A DNA stretch of 64,000 bases from Clostridiales bacterium (GCA_022508245.1 JAFLVO010000006.1:847-64846), one strand, 5' to 3'; positions 5,304-27,670 are shown, counted from the stretch's first letter. Program-made: numbers and translations. The notes: generated by a model not told the origin, from the sequence alone.

Positions 5304-6434
5304 ATGGCACAACTTTTATTCAAAGACGTAAACAAAGTTTATCCCAACGGATACCATGCCGTACACGATTTTAATATGGAAATCAAGCACGGCGAATTTA
5401 TCTGCCTTGTCGGCGATTCGGGCTGCGGTAAATCAACTACCCTTCGTATGATTGCGGGACTTGAAGACATCACTGCGGGCGAGTTCTACATTGACGGAAA
5501 GCTTGCAAATCAGATGTCCTCGCGCGACAGAGGAATTGCAATGGTATTCCAGTCCTACGCGCTCTATCCCCACCTTACGGTTGCCGAAAATCTCGGTTTC
5601 GGACTCACGCTCGAAGGTATCGACGCAGACGTCATCGACGAGAGAGTTGCGGCTACGGCAAAAATTCTCGGCTTGACCGACTATCTTGAAAGATTCCCCC
5701 GTCAGCTCTCCGGCGGTCAGTGTCAGCGTGTGGCGGTAGGCCGTGCGCTCATAAGAAAGGTTTCAATCTTCCTTATGGACGAACCCTTATCCAACCTTGA
5801 CGCAAAACAGCGTGTTACAATGCGTTCTGAAATCAAGCAGATTCATCGTTCGGTAGGTGCAACAACTATCTACGTAACCCACGACCAGACCGAGGCTATG
5901 ACCATGTCGGACAGAATAGTCGTTATGAGATCGGGCGGCTACGTTCAGCAGATAGGCACCCCCTACGAGCTGTATTTCTATCCCAAGAACCTGTTCGTTG
6001 CGGGCTTTATAGGCGAGCCTCCCATGAACTTTATCCGCGGCACGGTTGAAAACGGCCACTTCAAGACGGAAACGCTTGACCTCGATATTAAGCCCATCGT
6101 CAAGGACGCCAATGCAATCGAGGGTAAGAAGGTCGTATTTGCGTTCAGACCCGAGGCAGTCGAGGTTTACGGCGTCGAAAAGAAGGGCGCTGCCAAACCC
6201 GCGGCAAAGACAGAGGGCTACGTAATTTCTTCCAACGTTGACTTAACCGAGCTTCTCGGCGACACCACCAACGTGTACGCAAACGTAGGCAACGTAAACG
6301 TAATTCTCAAAATCAATCCTCACCACACTCCCGAAATGGGCTCGGAATTCAAATTCGTTATTCCTCACAAGGCTGCATACCTCTTCGATGCAGAGACCGA
6401 GGAGGTTATCGAAAGCGGTTTGGAAAGACACTGA
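5304..6434 (+). CDS. sugar ABC transporter ATP-binding protein (MsmK/MalK/UgpC type)
   Basis: Walker A GDSGCGKST, signature LSGGQCQRVAVGRAL, Walker B IFLMDEPLSNLD, H-loop YVTHD, plus a C-terminal MalK-like regulatory domain. Confidence 0.9.
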   Translation: MAQLLFKDVNKVYPNGYHAVHDFNMEIKHGEFICLVGDSGCGKSTTLRMIAGLEDITAGEFYIDGKLANQMSSRDRGIAMVFQSYALYPHLTVAENLGFGLTLEGIDADVIDERVAATAKILGLTDYLERFPRQLSGGQCQRVAVGRALIRKVSIFLMDEPLSNLDAKQRVTMRSEIKQIHRSVGATTIYVTHDQTEAMTMSDRIVVMRSGGYVQQIGTPYELYFYPKNLFVAGFIGEPPMNFIRGTVENGHFKTETLDLDIKPIVKDANAIEGKKVVFAFRPEAVEVYGVEKKGAAKPAAKTEGYVISSNVDLTELLGDTTNVYANVGNVNVILKINPHHTPEMGSEFKFVIPHKAAYLFDAETEEVIESGLERH

Positions 6435-10853: not shown

Positions 10854-10919
10854 GTTAAGACTAAAAACAACTATCTTCCCCTAAAAATTATGGGAAGATA
10901 TGTTAATAAAGAGAAAAAT

Positions 10920-12029
10920 ATGGATAACAAAAATTACGAACAGGAAAGTCAAGATAACTCAACACAGCTTAACGCGGGCGGAGCAGATAAAGTTAAAAGG
11001 GTTGCAGAGTTAACGGGGCTTGTTCTTGTATGCTTCGCCGCATTAGCGGGGCTGATATTTACTTTCCTGATAGAAGTAAACGGGACCGGGATAATGGGGT
11101 CGGTGTCTGCTATGATTTACCGTTACTTCGGCGATGCGTATAATGGCTTATCCGGCGAGTGGAAAAACAACTACGATAAAATCATATACTATATGCCCAA
11201 CATTGCCGGCACTGTAGTGGCGGCAGGTGCAATATTGAGCACCGTAACGTTTGCCGTACTTACGGCATTGGAAGGATATAAGAAATTTTTAAAAAAGCGG
11301 GAAAACACCAAGCTTGCAACGTTTGCAGCTGCAACCTATCTCTCGTTTGCGTTGTGTGCAACTTTGTTCCTTGCAATCCACAATGTTGCAGAAAAGTTTT
11401 CGGACAGAACCGTTGGCGAAGTCAAATTCAGCGGTGCAACGCTTGCGGGACTGATATTGGGCGGAATTGCGCTCGGCGGATATTATTGTTGCCGCTTTGT
11501 CTGCAATTTGCACAAATATAAAAACATGAAAAAATCGGCCTCTTCCGTAATTGTGCTTGTTGTTGCGGCGCTTACGGTAGCAGTGATAGCTCTGTCAGCG
11601 AACCCCGTCGCAAAGGGTACGTCAAACTGGACTACGGTGTATTGGGGATATTTTGCTATGCCAAAGATATACTTGAATATTGCTTTTGCGACTATGCCGT
11701 CGGTAGATTGCTCCACAATTGCTTCACTCTGCATAGCGGGCTACATATCACAGGCAGCAATAACAATACTGTCCGTAATCGCCCTTTTACAATTTTTGAA
11801 CGCCGCTTGCGGTGACGGAAATGGAAAAATGCTCCCCGTTTTTACAGCTGTTTCTCTCTTATTCTCTATGGCAAATTTAATTTGCGCCATCGGCGCGGCT
11901 TCAGAGTTTGAAAAGATTGCTTACGAATCTATTTTCAGTCATGCCGCACCCATAGCAATACTCATTCTGAATGTTTTGGCTCTCGCGGGCGGTATTTCCT
12001 ATAAAATTTTGGGCTCCAAACAAGAATAG
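10920..12029 (+). CDS. hypothetical polytopic membrane protein (~8 TM, apparent internal duplication)
   Basis: Hydrophobic helices separated by basic patches (YKKFLKKRENTK, HKYKNMKKS). The start is ambiguous: ATG 10890 or 10920, with 10920 having the weak RBS aagaga. No family recognised. Confidence 0.6.
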   Translation: MDNKNYEQESQDNSTQLNAGGADKVKRVAELTGLVLVCFAALAGLIFTFLIEVNGTGIMGSVSAMIYRYFGDAYNGLSGEWKNNYDKIIYYMPNIAGTVVAAGAILSTVTFAVLTALEGYKKFLKKRENTKLATFAAATYLSFALCATLFLAIHNVAEKFSDRTVGEVKFSGATLAGLILGGIALGGYYCCRFVCNLHKYKNMKKSASSVIVLVVAALTVAVIALSANPVAKGTSNWTTVYWGYFAMPKIYLNIAFATMPSVDCSTIASLCIAGYISQAAITILSVIALLQFLNAACGDGNGKMLPVFTAVSLLFSMANLICAIGAASEFEKIAYESIFSHAAPIAILILNVLALAGGISYKILGSKQE

Positions 12030-12100: not shown

Positions 12101-13042
12101 TTATTTTTTAAGAATTTCTTTAATTCGACTTGTGGAAGTATTTATAATTTCATTGACCTCGGAGGCGGACAACTCTTTCGACCACTTGACGGGGGAGGGG
12201 GTAAAATCGCACTTAAGCCCGCCGTGCGCAAATCTTGCGGTTTGGTCACGGTAGGTGTCGTTCCATTTGTTGTAAAACACGCTTGCAATATGATTGCCGA
12301 GGCGGCAGTTTACAAAATCGCATTTGCCGAAATCACGCCACGGTCTGGCAAGATAAACGGAATCAGGGTCGGCGCCACAGCTTTCAAAATCGCAGTCAAT
12401 GAATACAAAACCACGCTCCTGCTTTAAAGAGTGCGCAGGTGCGGCAACGTAACCGATTCCACGCTCGTCGTGTAAAGAAACAATTTTGCAGTTTACAAAA
12501 TAAGCCTCGGCGCATCCGAAGATAAAGTCCACCGTTCCCATAATACGGCAATTTTTAAATATATGCGTTGACGACCCGCTCAAATACAGCTCTTTTTCGG
12601 GGATAAACCCTCTATAGCGCACCACGAGATCGTCGGGAAAGGGGGAGCAAAACAGCGTATCCTGCGTAGATTTCAAATCGATATTATCGGCATAAAAGCT
12701 TTTTGCGTTTACCGAAAGCGCCACGCACTGCCCGACCTCTCGCGGGGAGGTATTGGAGTTTTCTACCGTCAGATTTTTAAGCGTAATACGCTCTCCGGTA
12801 ATACATAAGGTGTATGTGCGGAAAGTATTGTATTCCTGTCCGTCGGCGTGGATTTTCCGTGCATAATCATCGTAGGTTATAATAGTTGTTTCACGGTCTT
12901 CGCCGATTATAGTTAAATCATTCGCACTAATAAGCGTTTTTTGTCTGTATAAACCCTTTTTTAAATATACAGTGGCGGGTTCTTGTAAACTATTCAAAAT
13001 ATCAGACAAACTGTCTTTGGGAGTTAAGTGCAGTTCCAACAT
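12101..13042 (-). CDS. pectinesterase (CE8), no signal peptide
   Basis: CE8 catalytic motifs QDTLF (STQDTLFCS), DFIFG (VDFIFGCA) and YLARPW. The N-terminus MLELHLTPKDS lacks a signal sequence. Confidence 0.88.
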   Translation of the reverse strand: MLELHLTPKDSLSDILNSLQEPATVYLKKGLYRQKTLISANDLTIIGEDRETTIITYDDYARKIHADGQEYNTFRTYTLCITGERITLKNLTVENSNTSPREVGQCVALSVNAKSFYADNIDLKSTQDTLFCSPFPDDLVVRYRGFIPEKELYLSGSSTHIFKNCRIMGTVDFIFGCAEAYFVNCKIVSLHDERGIGYVAAPAHSLKQERGFVFIDCDFESCGADPDSVYLARPWRDFGKCDFVNCRLGNHIASVFYNKWNDTYRDQTARFAHGGLKCDFTPSPVKWSKELSASEVNEIINTSTSRIKEILKK

Positions 13043-13199: not shown

Positions 13200-13874
13200 A
13201 TGCGTAAAAACGGTTCAAGATCAATTTCGTTGCGGGAATATCGTCTGCTCGACCTATTTATTTTTACGTTGGTAATAGTAGGGTTTAACCTGCTGGCGCA
13301 CTATGCTCCCGTACTTTTTCCCGACGGTGCGCTGTTTACATTCACACTGACGTTGCCGATAATTTTACTTGTAATGATACGCTGGGGCTGGCAAAGCGTT
13401 TTCATTGCCGTAATCGACGGCGCAATTTACTGCTTACTTAATAATTTCGATTGGCAGATTTACCTTATACTGATACTCGGCAACTGCTTTTCAATGCTAC
13501 TGTTACTCTTAGTAAAAATTATGGATAAACAAAAAATTACCGGAAAAATCTATTTCTCGGTACTATTTGTCGTTTTAGGCTGGCTTTTGATAGTATTGGG
13601 CAGAGCGGTTGTTGCGGAAATTGTGGGAATCGGCTTTGTCAACTGCATACTCAGCTTTTACGGACTTCCTGATTTGCTTTCCTTGGCGGTAGCCGTAATA
13701 CTTATTCTCGTTTTTCGCAGACTTGACGGAATGTTTGAGGACCAAAAGCACTACCTCATCCGCAAGGACAAAGAAAGGAAAGAGCTCGCCAGGCGCGATG
13801 AATTCGGCGACGAGCCTATAGAAATCGACGAGGAAAGTCTATCGATTTTAAATAAATACGAGGACGAGCTTTGA
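13200..13874 (+). CDS. hypothetical membrane protein (5-6 TM, acidic C-terminal tail)
   Basis: Hydrophobic helices throughout, with a C-terminal charged tail (RKDKERKELARRDEFGDEPIEIDEE). Extended -10 promoter upstream (ttgatt-16-TGtTATAAT at ~13147-13174). Confidence 0.6.
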   Translation: MRKNGSRSISLREYRLLDLFIFTLVIVGFNLLAHYAPVLFPDGALFTFTLTLPIILLVMIRWGWQSVFIAVIDGAIYCLLNNFDWQIYLILILGNCFSMLLLLLVKIMDKQKITGKIYFSVLFVVLGWLLIVLGRAVVAEIVGIGFVNCILSFYGLPDLLSLAVAVILILVFRRLDGMFEDQKHYLIRKDKERKELARRDEFGDEPIEIDEESLSILNKYEDEL

Positions 13875-14052
13875 TAACATAAAAAGTTATAAAGTTCAAC
13901 ATAGTGACAGAATTAAAGGGATATCCCTTTATGCGCACTTGCAAGGGCGCATAACAATCACTGTTAAGCAATAAAACCACGGTAATAGGCGGACAACCCC
14001 GCATTACAGATAAATTACTTGAAATCTTAAGTGATATGGAGGAAATTTTTCG

Positions 14053-15150
14053 ATGTTCAAACTCAAGTATGACGACTTCCTTATCTACGACGAGGCAACG
14101 GGAACATATTCCATGGCTGCCGATCAAAAGGTAAGGGACGAGACAGAGCGGAAGAGATGGAAAACAACCGGATTCACTATTTTGAAGGATTGGCGACTGT
14201 ATCTTATGCTTGTGCCGATGCTCTTCGTGTACATCTGCTGGAAGTACTTGCCTCTCTACGAACTGGTTTCGGCTTTCCAGGTCGGCGACAGCAGTGAAGT
14301 TGCCGAACGCTTTTGGTACGGTTTTGAGAACTTCAAATCGCTGCTTGCACCTACGAACGGCGTATGGTCGAGCACGGCAATGGACTTTTGGAGAGCCTTC
14401 CGAAACACTTTTGCAATAGCCTTCTACGGGCTGTTGTTCGGATTCCCCGTCCCCATTATTTTAGCGTTGTTCTTCAACGAGGTTCGTTCCAACCTGGCGC
14501 GTTCTGTTATGCAGGTGTGCGTATACCTGCCCAAGTTCATGTCGACCGTCGTTGTTACTTCGCTTGCAATAGTAATTTTCCGTGGCGGCGCATCTGCATC
14601 CAACTACGGCGTTGTTACCAAATTCCTCGTATGGATATCGGGCAACAATCCTAATATTGTAGCTGCGGCAGGCAATAACCTCCTGTTTTCGGCAAGATAT
14701 TTCCGTGCGCTGTACGTCATAACGGAATTGTGGGAGCACGCGGGCTATGATTCAATCGTATTCTTCGCTGCCGTCATAGCAATTTCGCCCACCTCGTACG
14801 AAGCGGCGCAGATTGACGGTGCAGGCAAGATGGCGCAGATGCGTTACGTCGTAATTCCGAGCATCTTATCCACAGTTATCATTATGTTGATAATGAGAAT
14901 AGGCGGACTTCTTTCCGTAAGCTACGAAAAGATTTATCTGCTCACTCCTTCCGAGAGCTTCAGCAACTACGCTGTTGCCGACGTTGTTTCGACGTTTGCA
15001 AACAACCTGCAATCGCCCAGACTCGCCGGTAATACACCTCAACCCTTGCTTGCCGTTGCTGCGGAAATGATAAATAACGTAATAGGCATGATACTCGTCC
15101 TCGGTGCAAACACAATTGCCCGCAAGGCGTCGAACGTGTCGCTGTATTAA
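14053..15150 (+). CDS. carbohydrate ABC transporter permease (LplB/YtcP-like)
   Basis: MalF/LplB-type permease with an EAA-like loop (AAQIDGAGKMAQMRYVVIP). RBS ggagga. N-terminal ~35-aa cytoplasmic extension. Confidence 0.85.
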   Translation: MFKLKYDDFLIYDEATGTYSMAADQKVRDETERKRWKTTGFTILKDWRLYLMLVPMLFVYICWKYLPLYELVSAFQVGDSSEVAERFWYGFENFKSLLAPTNGVWSSTAMDFWRAFRNTFAIAFYGLLFGFPVPIILALFFNEVRSNLARSVMQVCVYLPKFMSTVVVTSLAIVIFRGGASASNYGVVTKFLVWISGNNPNIVAAAGNNLLFSARYFRALYVITELWEHAGYDSIVFFAAVIAISPTSYEAAQIDGAGKMAQMRYVVIPSILSTVIIMLIMRIGGLLSVSYEKIYLLTPSESFSNYAVADVVSTFANNLQSPRLAGNTPQPLLAVAAEMINNVIGMILVLGANTIARKASNVSLY

Positions 15151-15162
15151 GGAGGAATACGT

Positions 15163-16140
15163 ATGAAACGTAAAGTAGAAGTCAGCGAGCTCATATTCAG
15201 AATTATCGCATACGTTATTCTGATTATATTCGCAATAATGTGCATCTATCCCTTCCTGTATGCAATAGGCGGCGCATTTTCGTCGGCTAAAGCGATTGAA
15301 GGCGACAGCGTCGTCCTTTGGCCTATGATTGAAAACGACGCCGGCAAATTGGTTTTCGGCTTTGAGTTTAAAGCGTTTGCCTATGCCGCAACGAGAAACC
15401 AATTCTGGATAAGCTATTCAAACACTCTTTTCGTAACCATATTAGGTACGGTGTGGACTTTGGGATACTCCATACTCGGAGCATACGCATTGTCAAAGAA
15501 AAGACTGCTCGGCCGTCACGGCTGGAACTTCTTCCTCGTATTCACGATGTGGTTCTCGGCAGGTGTCGTCGCAACATTCTATAACTATCAGGCAACTGGC
15601 AAGGTGTTTGCAAGTATTGCGGGAGTTGATACCAGCCTCTGGCGTCAGGAAGTAGACCTCAAGTGGCTCGTAGTTATAGCAATGGGTATGAACGCAACGA
15701 ACATAATCCTTCTCCGTAACGCCTTCGAGGGAGTTCCCTCTGAAATAGAGGAGGCGGCAAGAATAGACGGCGCAACCGAGCTTCAGGTCCTTATGAACGT
15801 ATTTATCCCCATGAGCAAGGCAACCATCGCAACGGTCGCACTGTTCTTCGGTATTTCACGTTGGAACGGCTACTTCTGGGCTTACAGAATAATGGGCACG
15901 GATCAGAAAGAGTCCTGGCCGGTGCAGGTATTTATAAGAGACTTCATAAGTCATTACACCAATCTGACCGGCGAATACGATGCCGAAGTTGCAAGAGGCT
16001 ACGACGTAGCGGCAAACGGCTCGGCTACCTCGGTTGTATACTCGCTGGTTATCTGCGCTATTATTCCCATCCTCATAATTTACCCTTTCATTCAGAAGTA
16101 CTTTGCAAAGGGCGTAAATATGGGCGGCGTAAAAGAATAA
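15163..16140 (+). CDS. carbohydrate ABC transporter permease (LplC/MalG-like)
   Basis: EAA loop EAARIDGATELQVLMNVFIPMSK, 6 TM. RBS aaggagg. Confidence 0.88.
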   Translation: MKRKVEVSELIFRIIAYVILIIFAIMCIYPFLYAIGGAFSSAKAIEGDSVVLWPMIENDAGKLVFGFEFKAFAYAATRNQFWISYSNTLFVTILGTVWTLGYSILGAYALSKKRLLGRHGWNFFLVFTMWFSAGVVATFYNYQATGKVFASIAGVDTSLWRQEVDLKWLVVIAMGMNATNIILLRNAFEGVPSEIEEAARIDGATELQVLMNVFIPMSKATIATVALFFGISRWNGYFWAYRIMGTDQKESWPVQVFIRDFISHYTNLTGEYDAEVARGYDVAANGSATSVVYSLVICAIIPILIIYPFIQKYFAKGVNMGGVKE

Positions 16141-16225
16141 TGAAAGTACCTGTAAAGGTATATTGAAATTTCAATTTATTTAAATTCAAAATCAATAAAA
16201 ATAATTATATTTTAAGGAGATAATT

Positions 16226-18829
16226 ATGAACAAAACCAAAAAAATTGCTTCGGCGGTTGTTGCAACCGTTATGGCAGGAACAATGGTAGCTTCACTCGCA
16301 GCCTGCACCACCGGCGGCGGTGGCGGCGGCGGAAAAGTTGTCTTTTCAGAGGACACTAAGTACGCAGTAACTCTCAATATGAACGTAGGTTATCAGGGTG
16401 GCGGTTATACCAGCATCTCTTATAAGAACATTTCAGGTTCCTATAAGATGTCCGACGGCATAACCTATCAGAACGGCAACCTCAAACCCGCATGGCACGC
16501 ACTTTCGGACGCTATTCAAGTTTCCTTCAAAGACGTATTTACCGAAAAGGCTTCGGGCGACCAGATAAAAGAGGCTAGAACCAACGGTATCGAAAACTAC
16601 GACGTACTTACCGGTTCAAACAGCGACTTTATTACTTACAAAGACGATTTCCTCAATCTTAACAACTATCTCGACAGAATGCCCAACTACAAGGCATTCC
16701 TCGAAAACGATGTTGCAACACACATGGCTATTCTTGCCGACGTAGAAACGGGCGCTATGTATTACACCCCTTACTTCGACGGTCAGGACGCTATCGAAAG
16801 ATACGACATGGCAAACAGAAACTGGTCCAAGGCAATCCTCGACACGGATACCTCCGCGTGGGCTGGCGCCATTAAGTGGACGGACCACCTGACAAGCAAG
16901 AGAACCTACGGCGGACTTTCCGAAAACGCTTTCAACACCGTAATAACAAGCGGAACGGCGGCAACCTCCTATATGGGACAGACGGCAGAGGACAACTGGA
17001 CGGTTAAAACTACCGACCCCACCGATGCTACCAACATCAAGACCGTTGTTGTTAAAGTTGATTACGGCGCAGCTTTGACGGCTGTTAAGAATGCTGACTC
17101 CGAGCTCGGCAAGGCATATCAGGCTGCGGCAGGCGCGGCTTACGAGGGCACGAGCGGTAACATTGTTGAAATTCAGAACGCCGCTATAGCTGCAAATGCA
17201 GATATTACGGGCGCTCATCTTGCTAAACTCCTTCAGGAATATATCAAAGTGACCTATAAGTACGGCGCATCCGAAACTGAGGCAACGACCCAGCTCTACG
17301 GCGCAAACGGCACCAAGGTCAGCGACATATTCAACAGCGCTTACGCTTGCTGGGATGCAGATATTATGACGGCTATGTGGCGTTGCGTAGTTACGGCAGG
17401 AAAAACCGTACTCGGCACACAGACCCCCGATAACCTCATCTATGCTTACTCCGGCCGTGCAGCTACCTCCAATAGATCTATCGATATGGTACGCTTTGCA
17501 GGTACTCTCTACGGTATCCGCGGAACGGAATCCAAATTCCAGTACACCTATCTTGACGAGGACGGCAACGTAGTTGACGCACGTTCCAACGAAGCGTTCT
17601 ACGACGCACTTGCAAAATTCGGCGATTTGAGCAAGGAAGGCTTGGTATTCACTCAGGAAGACGGTACTGCGGCTCTCAAGGACAGCAAGGCATCTTTCTA
17701 TGAGGAAGACTCCGTTCAGGTTTATATGACTCACGACTATTCGCAGTCTCAGACCATCTACGGCCTTACCACCGAAACAGACCTTACGAAGTACAACTTT
17801 GGACCTATACTTACTCCCGTAGCTAAATGGGATACGACGGGTAAGGGCACCTCGTTCAATAATTCCGAGACAGATTATGAATATATGAGATTTATCGAGA
17901 GCTGGCGTGCAGTTAAGACCACAGGCTTCGGTCTTGCGGCTCACCTCGCTTCCAACGAAACCAAACTTGCTGCTGCACTCAAGTTCGTTGACTATCTGTA
18001 CTCAAACGACGGTCAGATCCTTATGTGCTTCGGACCTCTTGCAACAGAAGCGGGCGATGAGAGCGTAAGTAACGGCGGTTTCTGGTACGGACAGGAGGCA
18101 AGCGTTGCTCTTAATACCGTTGCAGAGCCCACCTATGAAGGCTCCACAATGTACAAGGTTAAGGATGAATACGCAGGTCAGTACCTCGTATTCCAGAACA
18201 AGGTTTACACAACCCAGTCCAAGTATGACGGCAAGGTTATTCCTACCCTCACGAATGCTACCTACAACTTCTTCATGACAGGTAAAGTTACACAGAGAAC
18301 TACCTCCAACGATATTTCCGACTGGAAAATGGCGGGCAACTACTCCAACTTCTCCGAGTACGTTATAGGTTCCTGCCTTCCCATCGGCGTAAAGAGCCAG
18401 GGCTTCGAAGCTCAGATGACCGCAGAATGCGGCAAGCTCGGCGTTGATATCGTAGGCTCCGCAATCGGTAACGAAACTATCAAACACGTTTCCGTAAGCA
18501 TCGATAAAGAAAACTACTGGTACTCCGTAATGCCTTCTTCGTTGCCTCTTACCAGCGCAGAGAGCACCGACGTAAAAAATAACTGCGGCACACTTACCGG
18601 CACCCTGTTCGGTACGGGCTCCAAGGCATATGCAAACCTTGCACTCGGACTTCTGAAAGCAGGCTACAATACGAACTACGCAATTACCACCGACCTCAAA
18701 GTACCTGCAAACGCAGCAGCTTGCTTAACTCTTGTAAACGGCGAAGGCTGCAAACTTACAACGTACGTTGATTACATGAACAACGCATGGAATAAGTTGC
18801 TCGTTAAGTTCGGCTACAAGGTAGCGTAA
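16226..18829 (+). CDS. extracellular solute-binding lipoprotein, unusually large (867 aa)
   Basis: Signal peptide plus lipobox SLAAC (Cys27), then a Gly7 linker. LplA-like SBP pattern (KPAWHAL, YDVLTG, GAMYYTPYF) with long extra segments. RBS aaggag. Confidence 0.8.
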   Translation: MNKTKKIASAVVATVMAGTMVASLAACTTGGGGGGGKVVFSEDTKYAVTLNMNVGYQGGGYTSISYKNISGSYKMSDGITYQNGNLKPAWHALSDAIQVSFKDVFTEKASGDQIKEARTNGIENYDVLTGSNSDFITYKDDFLNLNNYLDRMPNYKAFLENDVATHMAILADVETGAMYYTPYFDGQDAIERYDMANRNWSKAILDTDTSAWAGAIKWTDHLTSKRTYGGLSENAFNTVITSGTAATSYMGQTAEDNWTVKTTDPTDATNIKTVVVKVDYGAALTAVKNADSELGKAYQAAAGAAYEGTSGNIVEIQNAAIAANADITGAHLAKLLQEYIKVTYKYGASETEATTQLYGANGTKVSDIFNSAYACWDADIMTAMWRCVVTAGKTVLGTQTPDNLIYAYSGRAATSNRSIDMVRFAGTLYGIRGTESKFQYTYLDEDGNVVDARSNEAFYDALAKFGDLSKEGLVFTQEDGTAALKDSKASFYEEDSVQVYMTHDYSQSQTIYGLTTETDLTKYNFGPILTPVAKWDTTGKGTSFNNSETDYEYMRFIESWRAVKTTGFGLAAHLASNETKLAAALKFVDYLYSNDGQILMCFGPLATEAGDESVSNGGFWYGQEASVALNTVAEPTYEGSTMYKVKDEYAGQYLVFQNKVYTTQSKYDGKVIPTLTNATYNFFMTGKVTQRTTSNDISDWKMAGNYSNFSEYVIGSCLPIGVKSQGFEAQMTAECGKLGVDIVGSAIGNETIKHVSVSIDKENYWYSVMPSSLPLTSAESTDVKNNCGTLTGTLFGTGSKAYANLALGLLKAGYNTNYAITTDLKVPANAAACLTLVNGEGCKLTTYVDYMNNAWNKLLVKFGYKVA

Positions 18830-18880
18830 AACAAACCTTTCAATCCGTTTCAACGGATAATCATTAAAACAAATCGGTTG

Positions 18881-18906
18881 GGCGCCCGCCCGTGCGGGCG
18901 GGCGCC
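18881..18906 (+). promoter_or_regulatory. intra-operon all-GC stem-loop after the SBP gene (no U-tract)
   Basis: ggcgcccgccc (18881-18891) gtgc gggcgggcgcc (18896-18906), followed by gcagcc. Confidence 0.55.
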
Positions 18907-18934
18907 GCAGCCAAAGCTTCGGGGAAATTTATAT

Positions 18935-19522
18935 ATGAAAACTCAGATGAAATTTCAAAAGCTTCTATTGCTTTGTTCGTTGATACTTGCGGGTATTACC
19001 TGCCTGTACGCGCTGGGCTTCTTTACCGGTAGCTTAGCATCTTTATATCAGTACTCGGCGACACAGCAAAACGACGTTATAAATGCGAACGGTACGTTCG
19101 AGTTTGCCCAAAAAGTAAACAGTGTTTTAATGTTTATGGGCATCGCGTTTGTGTTGGCAATTGTTATTATGTACATAACGGCAACACAGAAAAGACGCAA
19201 CTATTACATTGACAATTACGTAACTATAGGAATAGCAGTTGTGTATGCGATTGTGTTTGCCATAGTTGCGCTCGTTTTAATAGGTCAGACGTCCAATATG
19301 TTCTTCAACGAAATAGACTGGACGAAATACAACACCCAGATTGCAGGCACGACAAGCGACTTCGGTATCAATAAGGACGGAGTAATGTTTATCCTCGGAT
19401 ATATACTGTTTTCCTTAGTTATACTCGATGCCGCCGCGCTCGGCCTCAACCTCTTGTGGAAAATAAAACTGATGCAGGGAGAGAAGGCTCTTCTCAACGG
19501 CACCCCCAAGGAGGTGGCATAA
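18935..19522 (+). CDS. hypothetical 4-TM membrane protein (ABC-operon accessory, paralog a)
   Basis: Start moved to ATG 18935 (MKTQMKFQKLL) because ORF 18878.. begins inside the GC hairpin. Topology is TM1-loop-TM2-QKRRNY-TM3-long loop-TM4. Confidence 0.65.
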   Translation: MKTQMKFQKLLLLCSLILAGITCLYALGFFTGSLASLYQYSATQQNDVINANGTFEFAQKVNSVLMFMGIAFVLAIVIMYITATQKRRNYYIDNYVTIGIAVVYAIVFAIVALVLIGQTSNMFFNEIDWTKYNTQIAGTTSDFGINKDGVMFILGYILFSLVILDAAALGLNLLWKIKLMQGEKALLNGTPKEVA

Positions 19523-20169
19523 TGGCTCAGCTCAACGCTAATCAAAAAATTATAGCTGACGACGTACTGCGCTACAAAAAGAACAAGCTCGCATCGACCC
19601 TTGCTCTTTTGGGACTTGTGTTCAACTGCCTGTACTTTATGGTGCTCTACTGCATAAGCAACAGAGAATTTTACAAAATTCTTATAGGCTTGTCGGTAGT
19701 AACCAACTTAATCGTGCTTTTGGGCGGGTTCCTTGCCTCCGAAGGCGTAAAGAACTACAAAAAGAGTATGGCAATAGTGCTTATGGTGCTTGCCGCTATT
19801 CAGATTGTAAGAATATTCGTATATCCCGTTCAGATTTTGAATTTCAAAGTCGCGGAGGGCAATACGTTCTACGGCATGACCGGAGCTTATTACTTCGGTG
19901 CAGACCTTACCACACAGTCGACTACGGTTATCTTAATAGTATACCTTGCTCTGTCTGCGGCGTGCTTTGTCGCTGCGGCGGTATGGGGATTGATAGTAGC
20001 CTTAAGGCTGGAGAACTTCAACCGTCAGCTCGATAATGGCGAGGTCGATATTGACAGAACGCTCAAGGAAATGGATGCGGAGGACGAGAGACAGACGTCT
20101 AACGTAGTTTCCGAAGCTACTATCTCCGAAACAGAAAAAAAGCTCGTAGAGGAGGAACAAGATGCCTGA
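19522..20169 (+). CDS. hypothetical 4-TM membrane protein (ABC-operon accessory, paralog b)
   Basis: ATG 19522 overlaps the upstream stop (TAATG) and follows ggaggtgg. Same topology, with the basic patch VKNYKKS between TM2 and TM3 and an acidic C-tail. Confidence 0.65.
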   Translation: MAQLNANQKIIADDVLRYKKNKLASTLALLGLVFNCLYFMVLYCISNREFYKILIGLSVVTNLIVLLGGFLASEGVKNYKKSMAIVLMVLAAIQIVRIFVYPVQILNFKVAEGNTFYGMTGAYYFGADLTTQSTTVILIVYLALSAACFVAAAVWGLIVALRLENFNRQLDNGEVDIDRTLKEMDAEDERQTSNVVSEATISETEKKLVEEEQDA

Positions 20170-21259
20170 AGTTAAAATTCAACATTTAGATAAAATCTAC
20201 GACGGCGGCGTTCAGGCTGTTTACGATTTCAACCTTGACGTAGCCGACGGCGAGTTTATAGTTTTGGTAGGACCTTCCGGTTGCGGAAAGTCCACAACGC
20301 TCAGAATGGTGGCAGGTCTTGAGGATATTACCAACGGAACTCTGCTCATCGACGGCAAGGATTGTACCCGTCTTCCCCCGAAAGACAGGGACATCGCCAT
20401 GGTATTCCAGAACTATGCGCTTTACGGTCATATGACTATCTACGAAAACATGGCGTTTTCGCTCACTCTCCGCAAGGAAAAGAAAGAAATCATACACAGA
20501 AAGGTTATGGCTGCGGCTGAAATACTCGATTTGAAGTCTCAGCTCAACAAAAAGCCAAAGCAGCTTTCGGGCGGTCAGCGCCAGCGTGTTGCAATGGGCA
20601 GAGCATTAGTCCGTAACCCCAAGGTGTTCCTGTTTGACGAACCCTTATCCAACCTCGACGCAAAGCTTCGCGGCTCTATGAGACGTGAGATTATGTTGCT
20701 TCATAAAAAACTGAACGCAACCATGATGTACGTTACCCACGACCAGACCGAGGCGTTGACCCTTGCCGACAGAATAGTATGTATGTCAATGGGTAGGGTA
20801 CAGCAGATAGGTAAGCCCATCGAGCTCTATGAACAGCCCGCCAACACTTTCGTTGCAACTTTCATAGGACTTCCTCCTATGAATATGTTCGACGGCAAAA
20901 TCGAGGGCGGTAAATTCGTGTGCGACCTCTTCGAATATAAATTGAACGAGGAACAAAGGGCAAGGCTTTCAGAGTACGAGGGGAAGGAAGTAATTCTGGG
21001 CGTCCGTCCCGAAAATATTACCCGCGACGGCAATATAACCCTCAACATAACCAACAACGAAAACCTTGGTATGAATACACTTGTCCACGGCAAGGTTTCG
21101 GGCGTTAAGCTTATCGTTTGCAAATTCTCCGAATGGTGCACGTATAAGCCCGGCGATGAAATCACAATAGGTTTCGACCCCGAAATGACCCACTTCTTCG
21201 AGAAGCCCATTCTTAACGATGAAGGCAAGGTTGTCGAGTACGGCAAGGCGATCAGATAA
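20162..21259 (+). CDS. sugar ABC transporter ATP-binding protein (MsmK/MalK type)
   Basis: Walker A GPSGCGKST, LSGGQRQRVAMGRAL, VFLFDEPLSNLD, YVTHDQ. Overlaps the upstream gene by 8 nt. Confidence 0.92.
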   Translation: MPEVKIQHLDKIYDGGVQAVYDFNLDVADGEFIVLVGPSGCGKSTTLRMVAGLEDITNGTLLIDGKDCTRLPPKDRDIAMVFQNYALYGHMTIYENMAFSLTLRKEKKEIIHRKVMAAAEILDLKSQLNKKPKQLSGGQRQRVAMGRALVRNPKVFLFDEPLSNLDAKLRGSMRREIMLLHKKLNATMMYVTHDQTEALTLADRIVCMSMGRVQQIGKPIELYEQPANTFVATFIGLPPMNMFDGKIEGGKFVCDLFEYKLNEEQRARLSEYEGKEVILGVRPENITRDGNITLNITNNENLGMNTLVHGKVSGVKLIVCKFSEWCTYKPGDEITIGFDPEMTHFFEKPILNDEGKVVEYGKAIR

Positions 21260-21273
21260 GGAGGAGCAGGATA

Positions 21274-21975
21274 ATGTCAGAAGATCAAATGACTGTTGAA
21301 AACGAGGTTCAGCTTGAAAATAAGCCTGCCGAAGAGCCTAAAAAGGAATCATTCGGTGCTAAAGTAAAGGAATCGTTGAGAAAGTTTACCGTTAAATTAA
21401 AGCGTAAGCCTCAAATGATAGTACTCTTGTTCGTTCTTATCACGAGCGTGGTTTATCTTTTGGGATTGAGGTCTTTCTCAAAGTCAGTTTACGCATTCCT
21501 TACCTCCAAGCTTCCCGACACTGTATTCGGTTCGGAGATTATCAACTTCATGGGAATATGCGTGTTCGTAAACACACTTTTCTCTTTCCTTGTACTCATG
21601 CTCGTTATGTGGTCATTCCCTAAACGTAAAAAGCCCAATGTAGTTATGATAGTATTGTCCTTTGTGTTTATGGCAGTGCTTATCCTGTTCGATATACTGT
21701 ACTATGTACAGATTTACGGACTGTGCGCCGACCAAATCGGTTCCACGCTGTATGAGGATGTAATATACTACCTTACCAACCAAAACAAGACTGCCGGCGA
21801 ATTTATAATTGCTTCATTCAACTACACTTGGGTTCACGTTGCAATGACGGGTATCTCCATAGTACTTTTGGCTACGTTACCTCTCTACAAAAAACTTCTT
21901 ATGAAAATCAATACGAAGAAGGTTATCGAGAGCACGGAAATCAAAGGCGAAATCGATACGAACGACGAAGTTTAA
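21274..21975 (+). CDS. hypothetical 4-TM membrane protein (ABC-operon accessory, paralog c)
   Basis: RBS aaggagg. Charged N-terminus, then TM1-loop-TM2-PKRKKPN-TM3-long loop-TM4-LYKKLLMK. Confidence 0.65.
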   Translation: MSEDQMTVENEVQLENKPAEEPKKESFGAKVKESLRKFTVKLKRKPQMIVLLFVLITSVVYLLGLRSFSKSVYAFLTSKLPDTVFGSEIINFMGICVFVNTLFSFLVLMLVMWSFPKRKKPNVVMIVLSFVFMAVLILFDILYYVQIYGLCADQIGSTLYEDVIYYLTNQNKTAGEFIIASFNYTWVHVAMTGISIVLLATLPLYKKLLMKINTKKVIESTEIKGEIDTNDEV

Positions 21976-21996: not shown

Positions 21997-22036
21997 AAAA
22001 ATAACCGGCAAAAAATATTTTTGTCGGTTATTTTTC
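21997..22036 (+). terminator. intrinsic terminator
   Basis: Long A/T-rich hairpin ataaccggcaaaaaa / tttttgtcggttat, followed by ttttt. Confidence 0.65.
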
Positions 22037-22049
22037 CAAAAGGTATTTT

Positions 22050-22751
22050 ATGGCAGGAAAGAACAAGAACAAAGAAAAGGAATCGACTATTGAAAATTAT
22101 TACGACCTTAAAACGGACAAGATAGACGAGCTTGTTGCCGCACTTAAGGGCGAAGAAGACGAAGCCGATTCCTCAATCGATTATTCGATAAATTTCAATA
22201 CGGGCGTATACGACCCCAAAAACATAAAAAAGAACGGTAAAGAAAAGCAGTTTGACCCCTATGAGCGAGACTTTTTAGCCAAAATCCCCGTATGGCTTAA
22301 AGCGCTGTTTGTCAAGTGGTGGTTTGCGGGCGCCGTCTGTTATTTTTTCGTGTGGGGCATAAATTTAGGCGCTCCGCTCGACGCAATCGTTTTAACGGGC
22401 GCGGTTTTGGGAATCGTCGTCGACATCCTCGTCAATCCGCTTTTCCGCTATATGGAGACGGACAGAAGAGAATACAACGCCTATATGATGTTCCCTTTCC
22501 CGTTTAAACAGTTTTGGACCTTTTTCACAAATATAATTTACTACGTTGTGGTCTTAATCGTAATGTATTATTGCTTTTACTTCTTTGTAAACGACGTAAT
22601 ATTCAACGGCGGACAGATGCTTACGGTTGAACCTCTGCTTTTCGGAGTGTTCTGCGTAATAATAGATATGATTTTTATAGGCATAAAAAACGGCATAGTT
22701 GCGTTGATAAAGCACGGCAGAAGCAAAAAGGAGAACTCTTCAAATGTTTAA
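22050..22751 (+). CDS. hypothetical membrane protein (charged N-domain + 4 TM)
   Basis: About 85 aa of charged N-terminus, then hydrophobic helices (WWFAGAVCYFFVWGI...). Its stop overlaps the GH28 start by 8 nt. Confidence 0.6.
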   Translation: MAGKNKNKEKESTIENYYDLKTDKIDELVAALKGEEDEADSSIDYSINFNTGVYDPKNIKKNGKEKQFDPYERDFLAKIPVWLKALFVKWWFAGAVCYFFVWGINLGAPLDAIVLTGAVLGIVVDILVNPLFRYMETDRREYNAYMMFPFPFKQFWTFFTNIIYYVVVLIVMYYCFYFFVNDVIFNGGQMLTVEPLLFGVFCVIIDMIFIGIKNGIVALIKHGRSKKENSSNV

Positions 22752-24282
22752 AAAGCTCTTTATTTCGAGCACTACGGCGTGCTTCGAGCTTGTCAATAAG
22801 AATCCCTATTACAGCCCCCGCACATTCAAGGTGTATTTAAACGGCAAAGAGGTCGCAGGCGAGAGGAGCGAAAACGTCTTTTCTCTCTTTAATCTGACCC
22901 CCGAAACGCAGTACACCGTTGAAATTTCCACGGAAAAAACCAAAATTGCCTTTACGACTCCCGCCGACACCGCAGTAATAGACGTTAAATCACTCGGCGC
23001 CAAAGCCGACGGTGTTTCGGACGATACCTACTACGTGCAGAAGGCAATAGACAGCTGTCCCGCAGGCGGCAGGGTGGTGCTTGAAGAGGGAGTTTATTTC
23101 GTTCGCCCCATCGTATTGAAAAGCGGGGTTACGGTAGAGCTCAAAAAGGGTGCCGAGCTGTTGGGCGACACGCGTGAGGAGAGTTATCCATATATTCCCG
23201 CCCGCATCTATAAGAGCGGTAAAGAAAATATTCTTGCAACGTGGGAGGGGGACCCCTTCGACTGTCATCAGTCCTTTATTTCGGCGTACAGGCAAAAAAA
23301 TATTAAGATTGTAGGCGAGGGCACTATAAACGGCAATGCCGACCGCTCCACCTGGTGGAATAGACCCACAGGCAGAAAGGTTGCCCGTCCCCGCCTCGTA
23401 TTTTTAAATAAGTGTCAAAACGTCGTTTTCCACGGCGTAACCTGCAAGAATTCGGCAAGCTGGAACCTGCATCCATACTTTTCAAAAAATCTCGCATTCT
23501 ACGATTTGAAGGTTGAAAACCCTTACACGGGTCCCAATACTGACGGACTTGACCCCGAAAGCTGCGACAAGGTCGATATTGTCGGCTGCAGGTTCAGCGT
23601 CGGCGACGACTGCTGTGCGATTAAGTCGGGTAAGCTGTATATGGGCAAGACCTACAAGACGCCCGCAACCCGCCACACTTTGAGAAATAATCTCTTTGAA
23701 AACGGTCACGGCGCAATCGTTCTCGGCAGTGAAATGGCGGGCGGAGTAAAGAGCCTTTCGGTAAGTCAATGCGTTTTCAGCCATACCGACAGGGGCTTGA
23801 GAATAAAGACGAGAAGGGGCAGAGGCAAGGACGGAATTATCGACGGCGTTCTGTTTGAAAATATAGTAATGAAGAACGTCATCGTACCGTTCGTAATAAA
23901 TATGTACTACCACTGCGACCCCGACGGTCACGATGAAATAGTTTGGTCGCGCAAAATGCGCCCGGTCGACGAAACGACGCCCTATCTCGGCAAATTCGCG
24001 TTCCGCGACATCGAGTGCGTTGACTGCGAGTGTATGGCGGGGTACTTTGACGGACTCGTCGAACAGCCCATAAAGGAAATCGTGATAGAAAACGTCAGTT
24101 TTTCCTTTAAAGAGGACGCACAGCCCTTCGAGCCTGCTATGCTCGATTTTATCAGAACTTATTGTAAAGAGGGGCTTTACGTAGATAACGTTGAAAAGCT
24201 CATTTTAAAGAACGTTACCTTTGACGGCGTTGTCGGCGAAAAAATAATAAAGAAAAATTGCGGAACAGTAATAGAGGAGTAA
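22744..24282 (+). CDS. glycoside hydrolase family 28 (exo-polygalacturonase-like), no signal peptide
   Basis: GH28 motifs NTDGLDP, GDDCCAIKSG, GHGAIVLGSE and RGLRIKT. N-terminal FN3-like ~80 aa. Confidence 0.88.
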   Translation: MFKKLFISSTTACFELVNKNPYYSPRTFKVYLNGKEVAGERSENVFSLFNLTPETQYTVEISTEKTKIAFTTPADTAVIDVKSLGAKADGVSDDTYYVQKAIDSCPAGGRVVLEEGVYFVRPIVLKSGVTVELKKGAELLGDTREESYPYIPARIYKSGKENILATWEGDPFDCHQSFISAYRQKNIKIVGEGTINGNADRSTWWNRPTGRKVARPRLVFLNKCQNVVFHGVTCKNSASWNLHPYFSKNLAFYDLKVENPYTGPNTDGLDPESCDKVDIVGCRFSVGDDCCAIKSGKLYMGKTYKTPATRHTLRNNLFENGHGAIVLGSEMAGGVKSLSVSQCVFSHTDRGLRIKTRRGRGKDGIIDGVLFENIVMKNVIVPFVINMYYHCDPDGHDEIVWSRKMRPVDETTPYLGKFAFRDIECVDCECMAGYFDGLVEQPIKEIVIENVSFSFKEDAQPFEPAMLDFIRTYCKEGLYVDNVEKLILKNVTFDGVVGEKIIKKNCGTVIEE

Positions 24283-24285
24283 AAT

Positions 24286-25419
24286 ATGAATTACAGCGTT
24301 ATTGATAAATATATCGACCGACTTATTGAGGATACTACACCCGAGGCGCCCATTTGGAATATTGAAAATATCAAGCACGGCAAGGAGCCCGGCTGGAACT
24401 ATATAGACGGCTGTATGATGACTTCGCTTTACAGTATTTACAAAATTACGGGCAACAAAAAATATCTTGAATTTATAGATAAATTCGTGGATTACTACGT
24501 TTTTGAGGACGGCTCTATCCGCGGCTTTAAGCTTGATACATACAACGTGGACAACCTGAACGAGGGCAGAGTGCTCTTCGACTTATACCGCGAAACGGGC
24601 AAGGCAAAGTATAAAAAGGCAATTGATTTACTGTATTCGCAGGTCTGCGGACAGCCCCGTACCGACTTGGGCAACTTTTGGCACAAGAAGATATATCCCA
24701 ATCAGGTGTGGCTTGACGGTCTGTATATGGCGCAGGTGTTCTACACCCGCTACGAGGCAGAATTCAACGACGGCAAGAACTTTAATGATATTGTTTCGCA
24801 GTTCAAAAACGTGTACGACAATATGTACGACAAACAAAAGCGCCTCTACTATCACGGTTGGGATTACTCTAAAAAAGCCTTTTGGAGTGACCCCGAGACC
24901 GGACTTTCCAAGAGCTTCTGGCTTCGCTCGGTCGGCTGGTACACCGTAGGTCTTGTGGACGCTATCAGCTATATGGACGGGGAAGAGTATAAGGCAAAGC
25001 TTATTGCAATCTTCAAGGACACGATAGAGGGGCTTGAAAGATATATAGACCCCGATAAAAAGATGTTCTGGCAGGTCGTGGACCAGGGAGCGAGAGAAGG
25101 AAATTATCTCGAAACGTCCGGCAGTGCAATGATTGCATACGCAATGTTAAAGGGCGCAAGACTGGGCTTTATCGATAAGCGTTATGCTACCGTCGGCGAG
25201 GAAGTATTCAACGGCATCTGCAAGGAATATCTTACCGAAACGGACGGCAAGCTTAACCTCGGCGGTATCTGCCTTATGGCGGGACTCGGACCTGAGAGCA
25301 ACAGAAAGCGCGACGGCACTTTCGAGTACTATATCTCCGAACCCGTCGTCGAAAACGACGCAAAGGGCACGGGCCCGTTCGTCATGGCATACACCGAAAT
25401 CAAACAGCTCAAAAAGTAA
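24286..25419 (+). CDS. glycoside hydrolase family 105 (unsaturated rhamnogalacturonyl/galacturonyl hydrolase, YteR/YesR-like)
   Basis: Pattern WNYIDGCMM, WLDGLYMAQVFY, YHGWD, FWLRSVGWY, ETSGSAMIAYAMLKG. Sits in a pectin locus. Confidence 0.82.
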   Translation: MNYSVIDKYIDRLIEDTTPEAPIWNIENIKHGKEPGWNYIDGCMMTSLYSIYKITGNKKYLEFIDKFVDYYVFEDGSIRGFKLDTYNVDNLNEGRVLFDLYRETGKAKYKKAIDLLYSQVCGQPRTDLGNFWHKKIYPNQVWLDGLYMAQVFYTRYEAEFNDGKNFNDIVSQFKNVYDNMYDKQKRLYYHGWDYSKKAFWSDPETGLSKSFWLRSVGWYTVGLVDAISYMDGEEYKAKLIAIFKDTIEGLERYIDPDKKMFWQVVDQGAREGNYLETSGSAMIAYAMLKGARLGFIDKRYATVGEEVFNGICKEYLTETDGKLNLGGICLMAGLGPESNRKRDGTFEYYISEPVVENDAKGTGPFVMAYTEIKQLKK

Positions 25420-26950: not shown

Positions 26951-27670
26951 TTATCGGGTTGTATTACCGTATTCAGTCGGCGAAACCCCGAAATTTTTCT
27001 TAAAAACTCTTGAAAAATACATGGGGTCGGAAAACCCGCACGCTTCGGCAACCTGAGAAACTGTGTACTCGCTGTACTGGTTGCTTATTCCGCTTGAAAT
27101 AATCTGTGCGGCAAGCCTCATCCTGCAGTCAGAGAGGTAGCAAAGGGGGGTGGTGCCAGTCTCCTTTTTAAACAGCTTTCTAAGATACTCGTAGCTTAAG
27201 GGCAGCCTCTTTAAGGTGTCGTCCACAGAGTACGAGGAGTTTGAAATATTGCTCTCAATCTCGGAGCGGATAGTTTCCACAAGGGGGGAATACTCCCGCT
27301 TTTTACAAAACGACGAAACGCATACCGCAATCAGATTTCCGAGTGCGTTTAAAACCTCGCCGTTTTTGTCAAAGAAATATTCCGCCTCTGTTATCGCCTG
27401 TGTAGTTATATTGTTTATGTCTTGAACCTTCGTAGGCGCTTTAAAGGGCAGAATTGCCTTTTCAAGCACGGCGACAGTGCTGTTTTTGAGCGCAGTCGAT
27501 GCGGTGTGCCGATAGAATGGGGGAAGGATCAATATCTCGCCCTTTTTAAATGCTAAAGAAACGTCGGGCAAGTTATATTCGCCGTCTTCGTCGGCAACGA
27601 AAATTTTATATAGCTTGTCCGCCCTCTCGGGCATATTTTCGGCTTTTCCCGCATATACGACAAAATTCAT
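26951..27670 (-). CDS. AraC-family transcriptional regulator
   Basis: N-terminal cupin-like part (GEILILPPFYRH). C-terminal double HTH (TVSQVAEACGFSDPMYFSRVFKKNFGVSPTEY). Confidence 0.85.
   Translation of the reverse strand: MNFVVYAGKAENMPERADKLYKIFVADEDGEYNLPDVSLAFKKGEILILPPFYRHTASTALKNSTVAVLEKAILPFKAPTKVQDINNITTQAITEAEYFFDKNGEVLNALGNLIAVCVSSFCKKREYSPLVETIRSEIESNISNSSYSVDDTLKRLPLSYEYLRKLFKKETGTTPLCYLSDCRMRLAAQIISSGISNQYSEYTVSQVAEACGFSDPMYFSRVFKKNFGVSPTEYGNTTR

Follow-up and report, generated by a model that had tools for sequence, protein, structure and literature searches.

In its textbook form, a type I ATP-binding cassette (ABC) importer has four subunits and works with a binding protein. 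In Bacillus, the pectin and rhamnogalacturonan loci LplABC, YtcQP-YteP and YesOPQ pair an importer with small polytopic proteins of the DUF624 family (YesL, YesV and YteU) and adjoin glycoside hydrolases (GH) of the GH105/GH88 and GH28 types, and the Bacillus aldouronate-type importers borrow a shared ATPase, MsmX. Small membrane partners that attach to the membrane domains of primary transporters and either stabilize them or tune their ATPases are found in LptB2FG-LptC, in the Mce/Mla systems with their Mam-type proteins and in KdpFABC (KdpF); to our knowledge, no type I binding-protein-dependent sugar importer has such partners. The alginate importer AlgM1M2SS of Sphingomonas sp. A1 (PDB 4TQU), a heterotetramer, works with the soluble binding proteins AlgQ1 and AlgQ2 and contains no other membrane subunits (PMC9751261). 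In a 2026 review of bacterial glycoside transporters, the only components given for ABC importers are a pair of membrane domains, a pair of ATPase domains and a binding protein (PMC13543919). Here we analyze a window of 64,000 nucleotides from a Clostridiales bacterium (GCA_022508245.1, JAFLVO010000006.1:847-64846) that carries a nine-gene transport module encoding, in order, a membrane protein (A), two permeases (P1 and P2), a substrate-binding lipoprotein, two membrane proteins (M1 and M2), an ATPase and two further membrane proteins (M3 and M4) (Table 1). We describe how the five additional membrane proteins, A and M1 to M4, are linked to the importer, and we weigh what they might contribute to it.

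Results

An AlgM1M2SS-like importer core and five orphan membrane proteins

P1 matched AlgM1 of PDB 4TQU (E-value (E) 3.3e-47, 8-298 of 301 residues covered) and P2 matched AlgM2 of the same structure (E 3.5e-57, 10-293 of 305 residues covered). The EAA loops in these alignments read EEAARIDGA (P2) and YEAAQIDGA, and the Pfam domain BPD_transp_1 gave a weak score for both proteins. The idea that the extra membrane proteins stand in for lost permease helices was rejected, as neither P1 nor P2 is shortened in comparison with AlgM1 and AlgM2. As a single sequence, the binding protein had no match in Pfam and none among PDB sequences; its family profile matched AlgQ1/AlgQ2 (E 1e-16) in three collinear stretches, and also 5GUB-type binding proteins (E 2e-8). 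It carries a lipobox (...SLAAC) and a Gly-rich linker, and insertions of about 350 residues in total make it larger than AlgQ; its homologues bear the JGI label 'putative aldouronate transport system substrate-binding protein', which is an LplA-type name. The ATPase contains the Pfam domains ABC_tran, OB_MalK and TOBE_2 and scored 460 bits against the UgpC subfamily of NCBIfam (cut-off 432 bits), and the ATPase orthologues of other copies of the module share 55-85% mutual identity across lineages. These homologies of P1, P2, the binding protein and the ATPase place the core among the type I ABC importers, as a member of the AlgM1M2SS/AlgQ (LplABC, CUT1) kind.

A preliminary description of the window had named a CUT1 importer, which holds and can be given more exactly as AlgM1M2SS/AlgQ-like from the matches of P1, P2 and the binding protein. 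It had also regarded an ATPase gene inside the operon as unusual, and this we do not uphold, since such an arrangement is normal for the AlgM1M2SS relative. The likeness to AlgM1M2SS and AlgQ1-Q2 thus includes homologous permeases, an AlgQ-like binding protein, an ATPase gene within the operon and, as far as gene context suggests, a substrate of acidic uronate oligomers whose breakdown is cytoplasmic. The differences are that the binding protein here is lipid-anchored and larger by some 350 aa, that the probable substrate is pectic rather than alginate, and that five extra polytopic proteins are co-encoded.

M1, M2 and M3 are genuine conserved genes. At E<=0.01 we found 189 homologues for M1 and 97 for M3, and an exhaustive profile search for M1 returned 386 clusters at 50% identity. 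The open reading frame (ORF) map and hydropathy bear out the positions first given for these three genes, their sizes (195, 215 and 233 aa) and their layout: each protein has four transmembrane (TM) segments, and the basic patches QKRRNY, VKNYKKS and PKRKKPN sit between TM2 and TM3 of M1, M2 and M3, respectively. The preliminary description was right about these three orphans and short in its count, because A and M4 belong to the same accessory set and bring it to five. M4, which has a cytoplasmic N-terminal domain of about 80 aa followed by four TM segments, had been overlooked (22050-22751), as had a GC-rich hairpin at 18876-18912.

The conserved motifs are invariant in A (RW(G)W and RRxDGMFEDQKxYL) and lie on the cytoplasmic side in M1 (MKTQMxFQK, KRRNYYxxNY and NLxWKIKLMxGEKxLL...EVA); those of M2 are RYKKNKL and SEGVKxY, both likewise cytoplasmic, and QIxRIF, with Arg97 invariant, and those of M3 are KExxRKxxVxLKRxP, FPKRKKPN and LPLYKKLxxKINTKK, of which LKRxP, FPKRKKPN and LPLYKKLxxKINT are invariant and cytoplasmic. 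Invariant charged residues occur in or near the membrane in M2 (Arg97), M4 (Asp206) and A (Arg61 and Arg135). AlphaFold2 (AF2) models of M1 (predicted local distance difference test (pLDDT) 87, predicted template modeling score (pTM) 0.83) and M3 (pLDDT 83, pTM 0.74) have a common helix order, in which TM1, a loop helix, TM2 and a basic turn are followed by TM3, a loop helix, TM4 and a C-terminal helix. The TM2-TM3 turn spans only about 5 residues in the M1 model. AF2 models cover M1 and M3, and the layout of M2 is taken from hydropathy.

None of the five proteins had a significant match in Pfam or NCBIfam. For DUF624 there was no match at E<=1 to A, M1, M2, M3 or M4 of the window, none in 36 members of the A, M2 and M4 families scanned singly, and none in three M3 homologues. 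Family profiles of A, M2 and M4 retrieved nothing below E 0.05 among PDB sequences. When the M1 and M3 models were searched against the PDB with Foldseek, no match was obtained at E<=0.001 and neither model resembled a channel or carrier fold; the neighbors of both models were generic or de novo designed four-helix bundles. The natural structural neighbors of M1 were synaptogyrin/MARVEL and the MS4A proteins CD20 and FcεRIβ, with TM-scores of 0.5-0.59, which share with the M1 model an up-down four-TM bundle with both termini cytoplasmic, a generic topology match. An assignment of M1 and M3 as MARVEL/MS4A/claudin-like tetraspans was rejected, given Foldseek E>=0.1, 8-15% identity and designed bundles that score equally. 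The sub-threshold Pfam matches were to Claudin_3 (E 0.36, M1) and MARVEL (E 0.16, the M3 homologue P0169). We likewise rejected A as an ECF-transporter S component, as it had no match in Pfam, NCBIfam or solved structures, S components included, and the ORFs of the region include no EcfT-like gene. In databases the five proteins are named 'hypothetical protein' or carry obvious mis-annotations, and our literature searches found no description of them. The small proteins are therefore outside DUF624 and outside any characterized family covered by Pfam, NCBIfam and Foldseek, as had been supposed. By analogy, their closest counterparts would be the DUF624 proteins of the Bacillus pectin loci, to which they are unrelated by sequence and whose role is likewise obscure; unlike those loci, the module has a dedicated ATPase gene interleaved with the small genes, and A and M1 to M4 are not DUF624 proteins.

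The gene order is conserved among divergent loci

A profile scan for M1 over one genome per GTDB species identified 101 relatives, from which 80 loci were fetched. All 80 are from metagenome-assembled genomes of uncultured Clostridia classified as Candidatus Coproplasma, Borkfalkiaceae or 'Christensenella sp.', which belong to one order, Christensenellales. The order A, P1, P2, binding protein, M1, M2, ATPase, M3, M4 was found in every locus that is long enough; A lies upstream of P1 in nearly all loci reaching far enough upstream, and M4 follows M3 in all but one of the loci reaching that far. These loci are flanked by UxaA, UxaC and an esterase upstream and by GH28 and GH88 downstream. The co-occurrence of this gene order in each relative examined sustains the earlier proposal that the small proteins are tied to the ABC importer. 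The observations named in the preliminary description as counting against its proposal were a characterized homologue, absence of the genes from relatives and unrelated folds, and we found none of the three.

Eight distant M1 members, with 22-29% identity to M1 of the window, led to ten more contigs (L081-L090; GC content 28-54%) in which family hidden Markov models traced the module order as far as the contigs reach, giving a total of about 90 loci over the same range of GC content. On one of these contigs (L088) the genes from UxaB to KduD form one compact array, with overlaps at A/P1, M3/M4 and M4/GH28. The search also recovered proteins in which M1 is fused to M2 (P0333 and P0342, 353-354 aa; L081, 4047-5111). 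M1 of the window aligns to residues 3-193 of P0333, and M2 aligns to residues 195-297 of P0333 and 208-342 of P0342. Because such fusions turn up repeatedly on many contigs, in one cluster of 5 members and another of 13, they are not sequencing errors.

Two independent samples, both with a GC content of 33%, yielded a variant with the order ATPase, A, P1, P2, M1, M2, ATPase, M3, M4 (L089 and L090). In this variant the gap from P2 to M1 is 20 nt and the binding-protein gene is absent from the locus (L089, 3751-5303; L090, 2-930), and a seryl-tRNA synthetase gene lies downstream where the pectin enzymes stand elsewhere. Because these loci keep all five membrane proteins without the binding-protein gene or the enzymes, the five travel with the translocator and not with the binding protein or the enzymes.

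The window encodes a second MalK-type ATPase (5304-6434), which is possibly a general MsmK-type energizer, a heterodimer partner or the ATPase of another transporter. Its orthology across lineages is ambiguous, with about 50% identity to both ATPase groups. A second ATPase gene is directly upstream of the module in L089 (867-2000) and one gene away in L082 (3-530). Separately, a single contig (JAJQDC010000044.1) provided two of the fetched loci, L003 (4463-25029) and L004 (24645-45211), which have identical feature coordinates; the L004 copy is followed by KduI, ATPase, UxaB and UxaA genes. Either the entire pectin locus (about 20 kb) is tandemly duplicated on this contig, or the assembly is at fault.

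M1, M2, the ATPase and M3 are closely coupled

The M1 stop and the M2 start share the TAATG at 19520-19524, and M2 and the ATPase overlap by 8 nt, both as originally read from the sequence; the M4 stop and the GH28 start also overlap by 8 nt. Across about 70 loci the median gap was -1 nt both from M1 to M2 and from M2 to the ATPase and 12 nt from the ATPase to M3. At the other junctions it was 15 nt (P1 to P2), 94 nt (binding protein to M1), 72 nt (M3 to M4) and 113 nt (A to P1). The M4/GH28 overlap was 8 nt in 41 of 68 loci and 14 nt in 7.

Two of the spacers are structured. The 115-nt stretch at 18826-18940, which holds the 18876-18912 hairpin, folds with -44 kcal/mol (z -4.2), and strong structure, mostly without a U-run, is seen in the spacer separating the binding-protein gene from M1 in 70/70 loci (L001-L080; median minimum free energy -36 kcal/mol). 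The mechanically called M1 ORF begins at a TTG (18878) within this GC hairpin; more probably, M1 starts at the ATG at 18935, in view of its conserved N-terminal MKTQM and a Shine-Dalgarno-like GGGGA. The spacer after M3 is structured in 63/63 loci, with a U-run in 65%, and the terminator reported there in the window is present as a hairpin and T-run at 21997-22035 (z -5.9), which a simple terminator scan omitted on account of its A/T-rich stem. Internal terminators are reported to set binding-protein excess in Clostridia (PMC9045158). The 18876-18912 hairpin is probably a partial terminator or an mRNA stabilizer that sets such an excess, and its position fits one tightly coupled expression block of M1, M2, the ATPase and M3. 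The permease genes, too, lie upstream of this hairpin. A search for RNA-seq runs turned up DNA gut-metagenome runs alone.

Conservation lies on the cytoplasmic side and in the membrane

Mean column conservation in M1 was 0.72 for cytoplasmic segments, 0.45 for TM segments and 0.29 for outer loops, and in M3 the corresponding values were 0.60, 0.55 and 0.18. In M2 it was 0.62 for TM segments, 0.24 for outer loops and 0.72 for the TM2-TM3 cytoplasmic loop; the pooled cytoplasmic segments of M2 gave 0.42, a value lowered by the variable C-terminal tail. The outer loops vary in length and have large insertions in some members.

As a proxy for co-evolution, pairwise distance matrices were compared over 56 loci. 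Distances for M1 to M3 correlated with those for P1, P2 and the binding protein at r 0.64-0.77, compared with 0.23-0.32 for GH28 and GH88 and 0.33-0.40 for the pectinesterase, and the known partners P1 and P2 correlated with each other at r 0.83. The pattern persisted after the enzyme distances were regressed out. These correlations favor a link to the importer and are supportive but weak.

M3 may connect M1 and M2 as ancient paralogues

The possibility that M1, M2 and M3 are paralogues was examined by profile-profile comparison judged against reversed-sequence controls. First-pass P values of 0.004-0.006 among the three were discarded as evidence, as reversed alignments reached P 0.0046. With deeper alignments, M1-M3 gave P 2e-4 over 153 in-register columns (controls 0.018-0.033) and M2-M3 gave P 2e-4 over 75 columns (controls 0.003-0.005). 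An M1-M2 value of P 3.9e-6 proved to be an artefact of M1-M2 fusion proteins in the alignment and became 0.062 after their removal. A match between the N-termini of M1 and P2 (P 8e-4, 38 columns) covers one TM helix and was taken as compositional. The profile comparisons are suggestive of paralogy among M1, M2 and M3, with M3 as the bridge.

The module lies in a pectin-utilization context

The genes around the transporter in the window include KDPG aldolase, KDG kinase, KduI-like, UxaB, UxaA and UxaC, and the pectin/oligogalacturonide setting first proposed for the locus is well founded in the GH28, GH88-type, pectinesterase and UxaABC genes that flank it. GH28 and GH88 are downstream in 66-68 of the 80 loci and also in L083, L087 and L088, and the pectin methylesterase is kept in 65/80. 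The pectinesterase, GH28 and GH88-type enzymes are all without a signal peptide, which suggests that the cell takes up pectic oligomers and degrades them internally. From the flanking GH28, GH88-type, pectinesterase, UxaABC, KduI and KDG-kinase genes we infer that the substrate is oligogalacturonides.

Discussion

The reading we favor as the most economical, at about even odds, is that A, M1, M2, M3 and M4 are dedicated accessory membrane subunits of a pectic-oligosaccharide importer. This proposal builds on the core homology, orphan status, linkage, fusion, coupling and sidedness of conservation described above. Under it, P1, P2, two copies of the ATPase and the lipid-anchored AlgQ-like binding protein would form an importer for acidic pectic oligosaccharides, that is, saturated, unsaturated or methyl-esterified oligogalacturonides, and these would be broken down in the cytoplasm by the pectinesterase, GH28, the GH88-type hydrolase and the Uxa/Kdu pathway. 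M1, M2 and M3 would be up-down four-helix bundles whose synthesis is kept at a fixed ratio to that of the ATPase by translational coupling, and M1 and M2 probably act together because they are fused in some lineages. Their functional surfaces would be the cytoplasmic loops and membrane-embedded helices, not the outer loops, and the conservation of these surfaces suggests that the proteins pack against the flanks of the P1/P2 dimer and touch either the ATPase or the cytoplasmic side of the dimer. There they may stabilize the complex or tune ATPase coupling. LptB2FG-LptC, Mce/Mla and KdpFABC resemble M1 to M3 in this proposed mode of action; they are other transporter classes with no sequence or fold relation to the proteins described here.

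Several points weigh against the proposal that the five are importer subunits. The distances of M1 to M3 correlated with those of the ATPase at r only 0.38-0.57, although the ATPase is too conserved to inform. M1 and M2 track the binding protein best (0.77), which fits poorly because the outer loops are weakly conserved and a variant without the binding-protein gene exists. The same tracking is the point in favor of a related idea, that the extra proteins dock the oversized binding protein, and this idea is weakened by the variable outer loops and by the L089-type variant. Operon-block history or shared envelope rate shifts could also yield the distance correlations without contact. A and M4 stand somewhat apart, with spacers of their own and with M4 coupled to GH28 and not to transporter genes. 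Finally, AlgM1M2SS functions as a plain heterotetramer (PMC9751261), so the extra proteins are not required by this fold in general.

Among other roles that the five might have in this pathway, one is that they act as non-stoichiometric regulators or as assembly or quality-control factors, for example by tethering or gating the ATPase through its regulatory domain, by choosing between ATPase paralogues or by aiding transporter insertion. The concentration of conservation in short basic cytoplasmic motifs, the ATPase gene embedded among the M genes and the linkage of a second MalK-like ATPase to the module in several lineages all agree with such a function, which we nevertheless find unlikely: tight coupling and M1-M2 fusion suit fixed-ratio partners better than catalytic helpers, five different polytopic proteins are many for regulation, and their divergence correlates weakly with the ATPase. 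We assign a slightly lower probability to a membrane device that serves the same pathway apart from the ABC importer, such as a channel or carrier for the counter-cations of oligogalacturonides, methanol or acetate, or a sensor feeding the AraC-type regulator. The invariant charged residues in or near the membrane (M2 Arg97, M4 Asp206, A Arg61 and Arg135) would suit a device of this kind, as would the coupling of M4 to GH28, the separate spacer of A and the AraC-family gene conserved nearby. However, in L089 and L090, where no pectin enzymes adjoin the module, the five still accompany P1, P2 and the ATPase; the ATPase gene is interleaved with M1, M2 and M3 and translationally coupled to them; and the M1 and M3 models showed no likeness to a channel or carrier fold.

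It is quite improbable, in our estimation, that M1, M2 and M3, with or without M4 and A, form the membrane domains of a second, non-canonical ABC transporter, in which the embedded ATPase would drive the M proteins and P1/P2 would use the ATPase at 5304-6434. Two ATPase paralogues do accompany the module, the ATPase gene does lie between M2 and M3 and away from P1/P2, and the conserved TM2-TM3 loop and C-terminal cytoplasmic helix loosely recall the coupling elements of the four-TM MacB/FtsX-type permeases. However, ATPases of the MalK/UgpC type partner with EAA-loop permeases, and it is P1 and P2 that have EAA loops; the modeled TM2-TM3 turn of M1, at about 5 residues, is too short for a coupling helix; and the orthology of the second ATPase is unclear given its similar identity to both groups. 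The probability is smaller still that the small genes are mere passengers in a syntenic block, functionally unconnected with the transporter. The 80 genome loci all belong to a single order and keep synteny across more than 20 kb, as passengers would allow, but order and coupling persist at 22-29% M1 identity and GC contents of 28-54%, M1-M2 fusions exist, and the set stays with the translocator where the binding-protein gene and the enzymes are both absent from the locus.

Returning to accessory subunits of the importer, a more specific form of this proposal would be a new importer architecture in which an AlgM1M2SS-like core is permanently ringed by up to five extra polytopic subunits, together about 20 TM helices. 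These subunits, among which M1 to M3 are possibly ancient paralogues, would engage the cytoplasmic face and govern coupling or stability while long polyanionic pectin fragments are taken up. We put this form forward tentatively and regard it as somewhat doubtful. If the subunit proposal is true, type I importer architecture can be elaborated, lineage-wide, by five obligatory membrane proteins. It would also bring five new protein families to annotate, which are now 'hypothetical' in hundreds of gut metagenome genomes, and a concrete target for cryo-electron microscopy and genetics. In gut Clostridia with small genomes (Coproplasma and Borkfalkiaceae-like organisms), the module is part of the main locus for scavenging pectin, and it thus bears on the sharing of dietary fibre fragments within the gut. 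The module may also shed light on the obscure DUF624 membrane proteins of the Bacillus pectin loci.

Features of the window

Table 1. Genes and RNA features of the transport module and its surroundings, numbered from the first nucleotide of the window
Feature	Position	Strand	Evidence or remark
A, orphan membrane protein, 224 aa, ~5-6 TM	13200..13874	+	ORF and hydropathy
P1, AlgM1/LplB-like permease, full length	14053..15150	+	BPD_transp_1; AlgM1 of PDB 4TQU
P2, AlgM2/LplC-like permease with EAA loop	15163..16140	+	BPD_transp_1; AlgM2 of PDB 4TQU
Substrate-binding lipoprotein, 867 aa, AlgQ-like	16226..18829	+	Family profile; lipobox LAAC
GC-rich hairpin without T-run, between binding-protein gene and M1	18876..18912	+	Folding
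M1, orphan 4-TM protein, 195 aa	18935..19522	+	ORF, hydropathy, AF2
M2, orphan 4-TM protein, 215 aa	19522..20169	+	ORF, hydropathy
ATPase, MalK/UgpC/MsmK type	20162..21259	+	ABC_tran, OB_MalK, TOBE_2
M3, orphan 4-TM protein, 233 aa	21274..21975	+	ORF, hydropathy, AF2
Hairpin then T-run, intrinsic-terminator-like, after M3	21997..22035	+	z -5.9
M4, orphan membrane protein, 233 aa, 4 TM	22050..22751	+	ORF and hydropathy
GH28 (probable exo-polygalacturonase), then GH88-type unsaturated uronyl hydrolase	22744..25419	+	Directly after M4
Pectin methylesterase, divergent from A	12101..13042	-	Pectin context
Second MalK-type ATPase, among uronate catabolism genes	5304..6434	+	46% identity to module ATPase
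Orphan membrane protein, 379 aa, ~8-9 TM, between UxaC and pectinesterase genes	10890..12029	+	
AraC-family regulator, downstream of GH88-type gene, opposite strand	26951..27670	-	

Two genes near the module deserve brief mention. The orphan membrane protein encoded at 10890-12029 gave noise alone in Pfam and NCBIfam scans, and it has a homologue at the equivalent place in just 8 of the 80 related loci. The AraC-family gene at 26951-27670 is likely the regulator of the pectin locus, and a homologue is found nearby in 37/80 loci.

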